A stretch of 64,000 bases of DNA from an uncultured Methanosarcinales archaeon (GTDB lineage Archaea; Nanobdellota; Nanobdellia; Woesearchaeales; SKGA01), in NCBI GenBank assembly GCA_964430665.1, contig CAYSFC010000001.1, forward strand, positions 361-64,360, given 5' to 3'. The position numbers and the translations under genes are program-made. Every line of letters begins with the position of its first letter. Position 1 is the first letter of the stretch. Positions 16,658 through 52,360 of the stretch are shown one piece after another. The notes under the pieces were generated by a model. The model saw only the letters and a list, made by a program, of their open reading frames with translations, made no database searches and was not told the origin of the DNA.

Positions 16658-17566
16658 TTAGATTAAAATGTCTCTAACTATTTTTTTCAATTCTTCTTGA
16701 CTTTCAGTTAAACTTATTTTTTCTCTAGCTCTTGCACTTCCTTCAAATCCTTTTATCCAATGTTGTGCTTGTATTTTTTGGTGTAATAGAGGAACTTCGT
16801 ATTTGGAACAAAGTTCTAGATATTTTTCAAAAGCTTCTTTTCTTTCTTTAAGGGAAATTTCTATAATTTCACCTGTTTTTAAAAAATGATTTATTTGTTT
16901 GAATATAAATGGATTTCCCGATGCACCTCTACCAATAGAAATGTAATCAGTCACCACCAACCTGCTAACTACCCCCTGAACGCTGTTGATGTCGCCGTTT
17001 CCAACTATGAGAACTTTTGAAATTTCTTTTAATTTTTTTATTTTTTCCCAATCTGCTTTTCCTGAATAGCCTTGGTAAGCATATCGACCATGAATTGTAA
17101 TAAAATCCACACCTGCTTTTTCACATTCTTTTATAACTTCTACAGCAGTAAAAGTTTTTACACCTAATCTTATTTTAATGGAAATTGGTTTTGAAACAAC
17201 TTCTTTTATTCTTTTAACAATTTCTCCACATTTTGCAGGATAATCTAAAAGTCCTGAACCTGCACCCTGTTTAGCGACATTTGGCGCAGGACATCCCATA
17301 TTAATGTCTATTATGTCGCACTTATCTTCAATTATTTTTGCAGCTGCAACGAAATCATCTACGTTTGATCCGAATAATTGTATTGAAAATGGTTTTTCCT
17401 CACCTTTTTGAATCATTTTGAGTGTTTTTTCATTTCCTTGTAGAATTGCTTTACAACTAATTAATTCTGTCACGGTTAAACCAGCACCATAAAGACTACA
17501 AAGCTCTCTAAAAGCCACATCTGTAATTCCTGCCATGGGTGCTAAAAATACTTTGGATTTAAACAT
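16658..17566 (-). CDS. tRNA-dihydrouridine synthase (Dus family)
   Basis: LAPMAGITD N-terminal motif, TIM-barrel FMN-binding pattern, catalytic Cys region INMGCP. Confidence 0.8.
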   Translation of the reverse strand: MFKSKVFLAPMAGITDVAFRELCSLYGAGLTVTELISCKAILQGNEKTLKMIQKGEEKPFSIQLFGSNVDDFVAAAKIIEDKCDIIDINMGCPAPNVAKQGAGSGLLDYPAKCGEIVKRIKEVVSKPISIKIRLGVKTFTAVEVIKECEKAGVDFITIHGRYAYQGYSGKADWEKIKKLKEISKVLIVGNGDINSVQGVVSRLVVTDYISIGRGASGNPFIFKQINHFLKTGEIIEISLKERKEAFEKYLELCSKYEVPLLHQKIQAQHWIKGFEGSARAREKISLTESQEELKKIVRDILI

Positions 17567-19214: not shown

Positions 19215-19289
19215 AGCGGGATGGAGCAGTCAGGAGTGCTCGCAGGGCTCATAACCCTGAGGTCGGAGGTTCAAATCCTCTTCCCGCTA
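19215..19289 (+). tRNA. initiator tRNA-Met (anticodon CAT)
   Basis: cloverleaf folds by hand; A1:U72 pair and three G:C pairs 29-31:39-41 in anticodon stem are archaeal initiator hallmarks; T-loop TTCAAAT. Confidence 0.8.
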
Positions 19290-35762: not shown

Positions 35763-36170
35763 TTACTTTTTCTTTTTAACTACTCTTTTTTTAGTAGTTT
35801 TCTTTTTAGCTGGAGCTTTTTTTACTGCTTTTTTCTTTACTGCTTTCTTTTTAGCTGGAGCTTTTTTCACTGCTTTCTTAACAGTTTTTTTCTTAACAGC
35901 TTTTTTCTTTTTAGCTGGAGCTTTTTTTACTGCTTTTTTCTTTACTACTTTTTTCTTAACAGCTTTCTTCTTAACAGCTTTCTTTTTTACTGCTTTCTTT
36001 TTAGCTGGAGCTTTTTTTACTGCTTTTTTCTTTACTGCTTTCTTTTTAGCTGGAGCTTTTTTCACTGCTTTCTTAACTGCTTTTTTCTTTACTACTTTTT
36101 TTACAACTTTTTTCTTAGTAGGTTTTTTCTTTGCTACCATGAATACACACCTCGTGTAGTTTTTAACCAT
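35763..36170 (-). CDS. lysine/alanine-rich KA-repeat protein (histone H1-like / AlgP-like tail), probable DNA-binding
   Basis: about 20 consecutive (K/A/V)KKAVKK-type repeats; underlying DNA is tandemly repeated. Confidence 0.5.
   Translation of the reverse strand: MVKNYTRCVFMVAKKKPTKKKVVKKVVKKKAVKKAVKKAPAKKKAVKKKAVKKAPAKKKAVKKKAVKKKAVKKKVVKKKAVKKAPAKKKKAVKKKTVKKAVKKAPAKKKAVKKKAVKKAPAKKKTTKKRVVKKKK
35790..36120. repeat. coding tandem DNA repeats (units ~21-60 bp) underlying the KA-repeat protein
   Basis: repeated gctggagctttttttactgcttttttctttact blocks seen directly. Confidence 0.55.
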
Positions 36171-39738: not shown

Positions 39739-39813
39739 TGCTCCCGCCGGGATTCGAACCCGGGTCCTCGGCGCGAAAGGCTGAGATGATTGGCCGGACT
39801 ACACCACGGAAGC
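39739..39813 (-). tRNA. tRNA-Glu (anticodon TTC)
   Basis: hand-folded cloverleaf; archaeal Glu/Asp-type D-arm GGTGTAGTCCGGCCAATCAT; anticodon loop CTTTCGC; one A-C mismatch in anticodon stem. Confidence 0.7.
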
Positions 39814-40189: not shown

Positions 40190-40190
40190 C

Positions 40191-40308
40191 CAAAATAAAA
40201 TGTGAGCCTACGGGGATTCAACCGAACGAATTTGTAAGTGAGCGTTGTGCTGGAATAAATATGACAGCATGTTCAAATCCCAAAATAAAATGTGAGCCTA
40301 CGGGGATT
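40191..40308. repeat. 28-bp perfect direct repeat (CAAAATAAAATGTGAGCCTACGGGGATT) at 40191-40218 and 40281-40308 = duplicated tRNA-Ile 3' end plus flank, enclosing scrambled tRNA-derived fragments
   Basis: seen directly; the intervening 62 bp contains inverted copies of tRNA-Ile D/anticodon/intron segments. Confidence 0.6.
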
Positions 40309-40402
40309 TGAACCCCGGACCACTGGCTCTCTTCGAGCGACATTGCTAAAACGCAATGCTGTCATATAAGACCAGCACTCTACCAGACTAAGCTATAGGC
40401 TC
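40293..40402 (-). tRNA. tRNA-Ile (anticodon TAT) with 36-nt intron at canonical 37/38 position (intron 40329-40364)
   Basis: acceptor GAGCCUA/UAGGCUC, T-arm CGGGG-TTCAAAT-CCCCG, anticodon stem CTGGT/GCCAG, loop C-T-TAT-A then intron, A38; intron carries an internal hairpin. Confidence 0.6.
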
Positions 40403-40407
40403 AGATA

Positions 40408-40519
40408 TGCACCGACCGGGAATCGAACCCGGGCCGAAGCCTCTTTGCAAGATTGAAGATTATTAAAATTTTCTTCACATCTATGGCAAGGCCCCATTGT
40501 ACCATTCAACCACCGGTGC
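40408..40519 (-). tRNA. tRNA-Gly (anticodon GCC) with 41-nt intron at 37/38 (intron 40443-40483)
   Basis: acceptor GCACCGG/TCGGTGC, T-arm CCGGG-TTCGATT-CCCGG, anticodon stem GGGCC/GGCTT (two G-U), loop TT-GCC-A; intron hairpin GAAGA...TCTTC. Confidence 0.55.
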
Positions 40520-40611
40520 AAGACGTAGATTTAAGAGAAAGAACTTTATTTAAAAAGGTTTTGATAGATTAAAATAGTTTCATTTATAAATGTTGAATTT
40601 TTAAATAGAGT

Positions 40612-50865: not shown

Positions 50866-51302
50866 AAATGGAAACGATAACTTCAGACGATATACTTGGA
50901 AAAATGGCACTAGATCCTAGTGGGGATATAGTTGGCATAATAACAGAGATCCATATAGATAAAAATAGTAAATTAATAACAGGTATAAGTGTTGATCAAG
51001 GTTTTATGAAACCTAGTTTGTTTATTGGATTAAATCACATACAAAAATTTGGTGTTGATGCTATATTTTTGAAAAAAATTCCTTTTGAGAAAATAAAAGG
51101 ATTGAATATATTAAATTATAAAGGAGATTTCTTAGGTTTTGTAGATGATGTTATAATTAAAAGACACAAAATAAAAGAAATAGTTGCTAAAAAAAGTAAA
51201 ATGTCTCAGGAATTTGTAATAATACCTTCTGCACATATTAAAGAAGTAGATAATGAAATCATTTTAAAGAAAGGATTTGGAAAGAAATTATGGAAAAAAT
51301 AA
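50862..51302 (+). CDS. PRC-barrel domain protein (paralog)
   Basis: ILGKMALDPSGDIVGIITEIHID and YKGDFLGFVDDVII motifs; 4-nt overlap with upstream paralog. Confidence 0.5.
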   Translation: MKMETITSDDILGKMALDPSGDIVGIITEIHIDKNSKLITGISVDQGFMKPSLFIGLNHIQKFGVDAIFLKKIPFEKIKGLNILNYKGDFLGFVDDVIIKRHKIKEIVAKKSKMSQEFVIIPSAHIKEVDNEIILKKGFGKKLWKK

Positions 51303-52360
51303 ATATTGATTTGTTAAAGAAATTAGAAATCGAAAAAATAAATCCTAAAGGAAATATTTCTGTTGAAGAGTTTGAAAAGATTCGACATAATTGCATTGTT
51401 TTTGATGTGCGATCTCCAAAAGAGTTTGAAGAATTTCATATTGTTAATAGTATAAACTTACCTTTATTGGAAAATGAAGCAAGAGCAATAGTAGGAACAA
51501 TTTACCGTCAGGCAGGACAGCAAGAGGCAGTGAACAGAGGTTGGAACTTATTTGAAAATAATTTTGAAATAATGGTTTCAAAAGCTAAAAAACATATTGT
51601 TAAAGATAAAAAAGTTGTTGTTTATTGTGCTCGAGGCGGAATGAGAAGTGGTATTGTTTCAAATTTATTAGAATTACTAGGTTATAAAATTTTTAAATTA
51701 GAAGGTGGAATAAAAGAATATCGTAATCAACTATATTTGTGGTTGGACAAATTATTGGAAAATTGGAAAGGTAAATTTATAGTGCTCGAAGGAATGACTG
51801 GTACTAGAAAAACAGAATTAATTCATACTTTAGATGTTCCTAAATTAGATTTAGAAGGTTTAGCTCAACATAGGGCTTCAACTTATGGTGGAGTGGGATT
51901 AGAGGAAAGAAGTCAAAAAATGTTTCTATTTCTTCTTTATGAAGAGTTACTTAAATTAAAAAATTGCACTAAAATAGTTGTTGAAGGAGAATCTAAAAAA
52001 ATTGGAAAAATTCATTTACCTGAAAAATTATTTGATTTAAAATTAAAAGGGGATTTCGTTCATGTAATTGCTTCTGATGAAGTTAGAATTAAACATATTA
52101 TCGACGAATATTGTTCAAGCCAAGATAAGATTAATGAATTAATTCAATTAACTCCACGATTAACAAATATGATTGGGAAGAAAAAAGTAAGTGAAATTAT
52201 TAAATGGTTCAAAGAAAAGAATTATTATGATGCCGTTAGATTTCTATTATTAGAATATTATGATAAAGTGTATAAAAATTTTGCAAAAAATTATGTTCTA
52301 GAGATTTGTACTGATAATTTGATTAAAGCTAAAAAAGAATTGGAAAAATTCATTGATTAA
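51290..52360 (+). CDS. tRNA 2-selenouridine / geranyl-thiouridine synthase SelU (MnmH)-like: rhodanese + P-loop
   Basis: rhodanese active loop VVVYCARGGMRSG followed by P-loop GMTGTRKT. Confidence 0.6.
   Translation: MEKINIDLLKKLEIEKINPKGNISVEEFEKIRHNCIVFDVRSPKEFEEFHIVNSINLPLLENEARAIVGTIYRQAGQQEAVNRGWNLFENNFEIMVSKAKKHIVKDKKVVVYCARGGMRSGIVSNLLELLGYKIFKLEGGIKEYRNQLYLWLDKLLENWKGKFIVLEGMTGTRKTELIHTLDVPKLDLEGLAQHRASTYGGVGLEERSQKMFLFLLYEELLKLKNCTKIVVEGESKKIGKIHLPEKLFDLKLKGDFVHVIASDEVRIKHIIDEYCSSQDKINELIQLTPRLTNMIGKKKVSEIIKWFKEKNYYDAVRFLLLEYYDKVYKNFAKNYVLEICTDNLIKAKKELEKFID

Follow-up and report, generated by a model that had tools for sequence, protein, structure and literature searches.

An intron-containing tRNA-Ile(UAU) gene as the probable AUA decoder of a Woesearchaeota-type DPANN archaeon

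How does an AT-rich archaeon read the isoleucine codon AUA: with a tRNA whose gene encodes the anticodon UAU, or with a tRNA-Ile2(CAU) that is modified to agmatidine by TiaS? Here, we describe a locus that raises this question, on a stretch of DNA of 64,000 nt (referred to throughout as the window) that corresponds to positions 361-64360 of the 100,107-bp metagenome scaffold_21 (ENA ERZ23495300, MUDA16-1_SAMN06140901; also SRR5112540). The gene, its parts and its immediate neighbours lie as follows.

40293..40402, minus strand: tRNA-Ile(UAU) gene, 110 nt (Rfam RF00005; ARAGORN -i)
40365..40402, minus strand: 5' exon, 38 nt, tRNA positions 1-37, with anticodon U34-A35-U36 at 40366-40368
40329..40364, minus strand: 36-nt intron UGACAGCAUUGCGUUUUAGCAAUGUCGCUCGAAGAG, at the canonical 37/38 site
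40293..40328, minus strand: 3' exon, 36 nt, positions 38-73, its last base being the discriminator A73
40408..40519, minus strand: tRNA-Gly(GCC) gene, interrupted by a 41-nt canonical intron and separated by 5 nt from the tRNA-Ile gene downstream (Rfam, 45.4 bits; ARAGORN -i)
40547..40554, minus strand: TATA-like box TTTAAATA, 28-35 nt upstream of tRNA-Gly, a candidate archaeal promoter (read from the sequence)
40280..40292, minus strand: oligo-T tract CATTTTATTTTGG immediately after A73, a candidate archaeal terminator (read from the sequence)
39739..39813, minus strand: tRNA-Glu(UUC) gene, 479 nt downstream of tRNA-Ile

The Rfam tRNA covariance model (RF00005; gathering threshold 29 bits) matches the tRNA-Ile(UAU) gene over its full length (model positions 1-71) with 57.9 bits (E = 6.9e-10), and its alignment places a 37-nt insertion after CUGGU-CUUAUA. 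ARAGORN in -i mode identifies the gene as tRNA-Ile(tat), its 36-nt intron falling between A37 and A38; in default mode it calls no tRNA at 40293-40402, because its intron search is then off. As read from the sequence, pairing is perfect in the acceptor stem (GAGCCUA/UAGGCUC) and in the T stem (CGGGG/CCCCG), the D stem contains two G.U pairs, and the anticodon stem (CUGGU/GCCAG) ends in a U31.G39 wobble. Removal of the intron leaves a 7-nt anticodon loop, C-U-U-A-U-A-A, and a mature tRNA of 74 nt including A73, with a type I body, a variable loop of 5 nt and no encoded CCA. The pre-tRNA folds with an energy of -44.1 kcal/mol (z = -4.05), and none of 200 shuffled sequences folds as well. Features compatible with isoleucine are present at A73, at A37 after U36 and at A38; A37 beside U36 is the usual t6A context, and A73, C4-G69, U12-A23 and A38 correspond to known bacterial (E. 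coli) IleRS identity elements, which may or may not apply in archaea.

Archaeal genes in the window include those for ribosomal protein S3Ae, aIF5B, XPD, a topoisomerase, SerRS and ValRS, with genes for the proteasome, aCPSF1 and PolB just beyond it on the scaffold. Homologous loci in other metagenome-assembled genomes (MAGs) were too distant for the host to be placed by gene order, and ValRS homology was used instead. The best ValRS match is a Woesearchaeota protein with 76% identity, and all top matches with a source name come from a Candidatus Woesearchaeota archaeon, a Nanoarchaeota archaeon or an 'archaeon'. Among the matches listed, the closest homologues of the tRNA are 80-87% identical to it (spliced) and occur in Woesearchaeota, Pacearchaeota and Nanoarchaeota MAGs. 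The ValRS and tRNA matches thus identify the host as a Woesearchaeota-type DPANN archaeon, its GC content being 28%.

The spacing of the tRNA-Gly(GCC) and tRNA-Ile(UAU) genes suggests that they are probably co-transcribed as a dicistronic transcript. The order Ile(UAU) to Glu(UUC) recurs in many Woesearchaeota, Pacearchaeota and Nanoarchaeota MAG loci (among L010-L120), and the Ile-Glu spacers of the DPANN loci listed measure about 0 to 2.3 kb and hold unrelated cargo genes. Elsewhere in the window are found a full-length, bacterial-type tRNA 2-selenouridine(34) synthase, MnmH/SelU (51290-52360, plus strand; NCBIfam NF008750, 322 bits), a fused protein where the archaeal SelU subunits are split, and likewise an enzyme of wobble-U34 modification; a bacterial-type tRNA dihydrouridine synthase (16658-17566, minus strand; 232 bits with Pfam Dus, and 266 bits with the DusB model against a cutoff of 293 bits); and a 135-aa ORF (35763-36170, minus strand) in which KKAVKKAPAKKK-type repeats take up nearly the whole length, and which encodes a lysine-rich protein that is histone-H1-like or a basic protein of low complexity.

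We consider it very probable that the gene is a functional, AUA-reading tRNA-Ile(UAU) of this Woesearchaeota-type archaeon, acting through the following route. The Gly-Ile pair would be transcribed from the TATA-like promoter, with the transcript ending at the oligo-T tract. The pre-tRNA is predicted to fold into a canonical bulge-helix-bulge (BHB) at 37/38, slightly relaxed by an A35.G apposition within its 4-bp central helix. The archaeal splicing endonuclease would then excise the 36-nt intron and the ligase join the exons, yielding the 74-nt tRNA with the loop C-U-U-A-U-A-A. In this tRNA, U34 would pair with the A of AUA, which is among the most used codons and stands for isoleucine. By lineage, tRNA-Ile(UAU) most likely replaces tRNA-Ile2(CAU) and TiaS, as in ARMAN, Nanoarchaeum and Korarchaeum, and candidates for what keeps U34 off AUG are a modification of U34, or adaptations of IleRS or the ribosome as in Mycoplasma mobile.

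The alternative that survives best, though we judge it unlikely, accepts the UAU tRNA as real and makes it redundant: the genome would keep a tRNA-Ile2(CAU) with TiaS, and agmatidine decoding of AUA would stay in place. For some bacteria, an evolutionary stage has been described at which both systems are present (PMC3575796). Our search, which found no TiaS among the scanned ORFs of the window or in 10 kb of additional scaffold, covered about 74 kb in all, a small part of the genome; no IleRS is present among the genes of the window. Against redundancy stands the absence of both TiaS and tRNA-Ile(CAU) from N. equitans, K. cryptofilum and ARMAN-2, -4 and -5, which are all the UAU archaea examined so far, as does the identity of the sole CAU tRNA in the window (19215-19289, plus strand). 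In the Rfam alignment this tRNA bears the initiator hallmarks A1:U72, A11:U24 and G29-31:C39-41, and it looks like the initiator and no candidate for tRNA-Ile2.

That the tRNA-Ile gene would yield UAU on splicing depends on the register of its intron. In a canonical archaeal 37/38 intron, nucleotides -3 to -6 of the intron are the partners of positions 32-35, 36-37-i1 and i(-2)-i(-1)-38 form the bulges, and the outer helix h' starts from i2:i(-7). In the window, the corresponding central helix consists of C32-G, U33-A and U34-A with an A35.G mismatch (3 of 4 pairs), the bulges are U36-A37-U(i1) and A(i35)-G(i36)-A38, and both flanking helices have at least 2 bp, helix h being the 5-bp anticodon stem and h' comprising G(i2)-C and A(i3)-U. 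A hairpin, GCAUUGC/GCAAUGU, lies inside the intron. The predicted spliced junction is ...GGUCUUAUA|AGCCAGUGG... (junction sequence GGTCTTATAAGCCAGTGG).

The minimum-free-energy fold of the isolated anticodon arm with its intron prefers a slipped pairing, and the register was therefore tested by comparison across homologues, using the window and 30 archaeal loci (n = 31) in which the 3' exon was located from tRNA geometry alone. Among these matches, introns of the 30 archaeal loci range from 25 to 117 nt, and across all 31 homologues they nearly always begin with U-G-A and end with UC-UAAG-NN; the 4-bp central helix is perfect in 25 and has 3 of 4 pairs in 6, the window included. Over the anticodon stem, the central helix (H) and h', 92.1% of cells are paired in the 31 homologues listed, and a displacement of the 3' partners by 1-3 columns lowers pairing to 32-48% (maximum 47.6%). 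Compensatory changes occur at 8 pairs, all four h' pairs among them, and none of 500 shuffles scored as high. With the canonical register 92% paired and backed by compensatory changes, the anticodon is therefore UAU; splice shifts of -1 or +1 would leave it UAU, and the loop CUUAUAA encodes no CAU in any plausible register (-1 to +1). Judged by the covariation that shows its structure, the intron is at the canonical 37/38 site.

An earlier, preliminary description of this DNA had folded by hand a 74-nt tRNA with a UAU anticodon on the minus strand at 40293-40402, once a 36-nt insertion was removed at the canonical 37/38 site, and had reported perfect acceptor and T arms with the anticodon stem and loop given above. 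All of these structural details proved correct. The covariance model, which might have returned no tRNA or another intron site, gave CUUAUA followed by the intron; ARAGORN agreed in its -i mode only; and the BHB has its UAU and AGA bulges in place.

A splice site moved by 3 nt would change the outcome. An intron lying 3 nt further 5' would leave the junction CUU|GAGAGCCAG and a mature anticodon of UGA (Ser), or another triplet, in place of UAU, a reading that we regard as very improbable. It draws on the slipped pairing in the minimum-free-energy fold of the window's arm and on ARAGORN -i, which reports a 3-nt-shifted intron and tRNA-Ser(tga) in several close homologues, among them L020, L042, L047, L074, L078, L079 and L096. 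In the window itself, however, ARAGORN and Rfam both give CUUAUA followed by the intron, the 92% pairing of the canonical register with its compensatory changes compares with at most 48% in the slid registers, and the variable loop of 5 nt is at odds with the long variable arm that a tRNA-Ser needs. The register of the BHB, together with covariation and the shortness of the variable loop, led us to reject the shifted-intron anticodons UGA, UAA and AGA.

ARAGORN -i misplaces the intron in orthologues more widely, with calls of Ser(tga), Ala(tgc), Glu(ctc) or Asn(att); the mis-assigned loci are the seven named above and L030, and also L031, L035, L059 and L104. Annotation errors that stem from this misplacement are likely to be present in DPANN MAGs; for a gene that is overlooked or mis-assigned by default tRNA finders, the analysis supplies the right annotation.

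Parts of the tRNA-Ile(UAU) gene recur within 100 nt downstream of it, as a direct repeat and as inverted fragments.

40190..40218, minus strand: copy 2 of a 29-nt direct repeat, identical to copy 1 at 40280-40308 (offset 90 nt)
40247..40281, minus strand: inverted fragments of the tRNA gene in the 61-nt spacer (GGGATTTGAAC, ATGCTGTCATAT and CCAGCAC)

The 29-nt repeat consists of the final 17 nt of tRNA-Ile and 12 nt of its 3' flank. Of the inverted fragments, GGGATTTGAAC is the reverse complement of the T-loop region, ATGCTGTCATAT is the exact reverse complement of the stretch from A35 to intron nucleotide 9 (a 12-nt match, equalled in 0 of 100 shuffles), and CCAGCAC is the reverse complement of G24-G30. 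Complementarity was measured by the longest exact complement; RNA duplex energy was of no use here, since for long sequences a global duplex is too permissive a measure. In three other DPANN loci (L014, L047 and L094) the tail of the locus's own tRNA is repeated 92-125 nt downstream, and a reverse-complemented T-loop is found in several tRNA-Ile(UAU) trailers of the DPANN loci listed.

The downstream copy has no tRNA-like Rfam match, and its fold has z = +0.59 relative to shuffles, on which grounds it was rejected as a pseudo-tRNA or structured small RNA. A split or permuted tRNA half of the Nanoarchaeum/Caldivirga type was rejected because the copy lacks the 3' strand of the anticodon stem and an intact T stem, and a BHB formed in trans with the 5' exon and intron because their duplex is an uninterrupted 12 bp with no bulges. 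By eye, no convincing C/D-box guide features were seen in the trailer or the intron, and no integrase or mobile-element genes, as an att site might suggest, were present in the Ile-Glu spacers of the window or of 10 relatives. The copies are probably a recombination scar; if so, they might mark the 3' end of tRNA-Ile(UAU) as a repeated recombination or integration site in DPANN, with copies in four lineages.

The same direct and inverted fragments, taken together with the one mismatch in the central helix of the BHB, could suggest that the gene itself is degenerating as a pseudogene or arose as a side effect of rearrangement at the locus. There is very little chance of this, given that the four stems of tRNA-Ile(UAU) are intact and its Rfam score is high, that promoter-like and terminator-like signals flank the Gly-Ile pair, that orthologues among the matches listed are 80-87% identical with conserved synteny, and that AUA, at 4.3% of all codons, needs a decoder.

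Codon use was tabulated over 58 ORFs of the window (17,661 codons; 28% GC), in which AUA occurs at 42.7 per 1000 codons, accounts for 45.7% of isoleucine codons and ranks 7th among codons by frequency. When the ValRS of the window is aligned with 119 homologues, columns at its AUA codons contain 57% Ile, 16% Leu, 15% Val and 6% Met, columns at AUU contain 62% Ile, and columns at AUG contain 67% Met; the AUA columns are like those of AUU and unlike those of AUG, and AUA is therefore a major isoleucine codon and not reassigned. Least probable of all the readings is thus a reassignment of AUA (e.g. to Met) with the tRNA carrying another amino acid, for which it may be said that AUA stands for Met in several mitochondrial codes and that the amino-acid identity of the tRNA is inferred from its sequence, and which the ValRS column profile rules out, with its AUA positions aligned to Ile, Leu and Val as those of AUU are and to Met in only 6%.

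Returning to tRNA-Ile(UAU) as the reader of AUA, the helix between its anticodon and its intron resembles the substrate of yeast Pus1, and intron-less versions of the gene were therefore sought. A metagenome pattern scan for an intron-less Woesearchaeota-type arm (CYGST-CTTATAA-RSCRG; 120 matches listed) yielded, among the matches listed, about 15 of 120 intron-less tRNA-Ile(UAU) genes with a DPANN-type body, which have a GAGCCTG...CAGGCTC acceptor and a UUCAAAU T-loop and are 75-82% identical to the spliced tRNA of the window. On the evidence of these genes, the intron is common but not obligatory in the DPANN tRNA-Ile(UAU) family. Their existence therefore disfavours a strict intron-dependence of wobble modification, and an obligatory intron with intron-dependent modification, as in yeast, is rejected as a rule.

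To assess the spread of the family, one genome of each GTDB species was scanned for a pattern running from the D arm to CTTATA and followed by a non-A base, with at least 120 matches. These include at least 30 further archaeal MAGs with an intron-containing tRNA-Ile(UAU), of which 26 among the matches listed are labelled as DPANN phyla; the labels among the matches listed are Woesearchaeota (13), Nanoarchaeota/Nanoarchaeia (5), Pacearchaeota (3), Micrarchaeota (3), 'archaeon' (2), 'Methanosarcinales' (2), Promethearchaeota (1) and 'Omnitrophota' (1, with an archaeal-type gene). A73 is present in 31 of 31 homologues among the matches listed, the window included. No tRNA-Ile(GAU) of the relatives was found in the archaeal loci retrieved with which the tRNA bodies might be compared.

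The scan also returned bacterial genes: about 80 of the 120 matches listed (L003-L122) come from bacterial MAGs, mostly, among the matches listed, of Patescibacteria/CPR (Saccharibacteria, Paceibacteria, Kaiser-, Nomura-, Uhr- and Taylorbacteria). These tRNA-Ile(UAU) genes lack an intron and have a base other than A at position 38, and the UAU decoder appears to be common in bacterial ultra-small lineages too. In each of three MAGs labelled 'archaeon' (L037, L051 and L112), an intron-less tRNA(UAU) gene that has a T-loop of archaeal type (UUCAAAU) and a base other than A at position 38 adjoins a distant ValRS homologue.

In surveys of cultured-type archaea, N. equitans and K. cryptofilum are the sole species listed with a tRNA-Ile(UAU) (PMC6000648, PMC8450103). 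It is also present in the DPANN archaea ARMAN-2, -4 and -5, which have neither tRNA-Ile(CAU) nor TiaS (Fujishima et al., 2011; PMC3239211). The preliminary description, which was right that the genome is very AT-rich and abundant in AUA, had regarded tRNA-Ile(UAU) as confined to a few lineages such as Nanoarchaeum and Korarchaeum; its occurrence in those two stands, and the claim of rarity is outdated in view of the ARMAN precedent and of the 30 or more further archaeal MAGs. The gene in the window is a typical member of a DPANN-wide tRNA-Ile(UAU) family, new only as an individual sequence, and it leaves knowledge of decoding unchanged. What the family as a whole conveys is that UAU decoding of AUA is the norm in many DPANN lineages, in which AUA can be a top-ten codon, and is not the curiosity of two hyperthermophiles.

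Because the UAU solution is usual in DPANN, these lineages lend themselves to asking how AUG is avoided by a U34 tRNA in archaea; to our knowledge, no archaeal tRNA-Ile(UAU) has been chemically characterised. As a tentative proposal, of which we are less than half convinced, Woesearchaeota, Pacearchaeota and Nanoarchaeota may as a group have abandoned agmatidine and read AUA, which ranks among their most frequent codons, by a U34 tRNA, with AUG avoided through an undescribed U34 modification or an adaptation of IleRS or the ribosome; separately, the 3' end of this tRNA might serve as a recurrent DPANN site of recombination or integration.

Among known systems, tRNA-Ile(UAU) of ARMAN-2, -4 and -5 (Micrarchaeota/Parvarchaeota) likewise combines a DPANN host, a UAU anticodon and a 37/38 intron in an hBHBh' structure (PMC3239211). 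The ARMAN-2 pre-tRNA has a 25-nt intron in a strict hBHBh' motif and is cleaved in vitro by the splicing endonuclease (PMC3239211), whereas the window gene has a 36-nt intron, one A35.G mismatch and a Woesearchaeota-type host; the loss of TiaS and tRNA-Ile(CAU) was shown on ARMAN genomes, whereas our search for TiaS covered about 74 kb of the scaffold. The canonical system of tRNA-Ile2(CAU) and TiaS (agmatidine, agm2C34) performs the same task of reading AUA as isoleucine without reading AUG, but there CAU is encoded and enzymatically converted, while the window gene encodes UAU and does not belong to that family. N. equitans and K. cryptofilum are GC-rich hyperthermophiles in which AUA is no major codon, in contrast to the window, where it is the 7th most used codon at 28% GC. 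In these two species the 'Ile3' tRNA is similarly a UAU decoder of AUA that replaces tRNA-Ile2(CAU) and TiaS (PMC6000648, PMC8450103), and the K. cryptofilum gene also has an intron. Mycoplasma mobile shares an AT-rich, reduced genome, the use of UAU for AUA and the lack of a cytidine-modifying enzyme; its tRNA-Ile2(UAU) is bacterial and intron-less, with U34 unmodified and with IleRS (Arg865) and the ribosome adapted (Taniguchi et al., 2013; PMC3575796). Eukaryotic tRNA-Ile(UAU) resembles the window gene in its anticodon and in a 37/38 intron whose 3' part pairs with the anticodon (PMC11408192). In yeast, that intron is required for modification, Pus1 forming Psi34 and Psi36 in an intron-dependent manner (PMC11408192), whereas the DPANN family includes intron-less genes.
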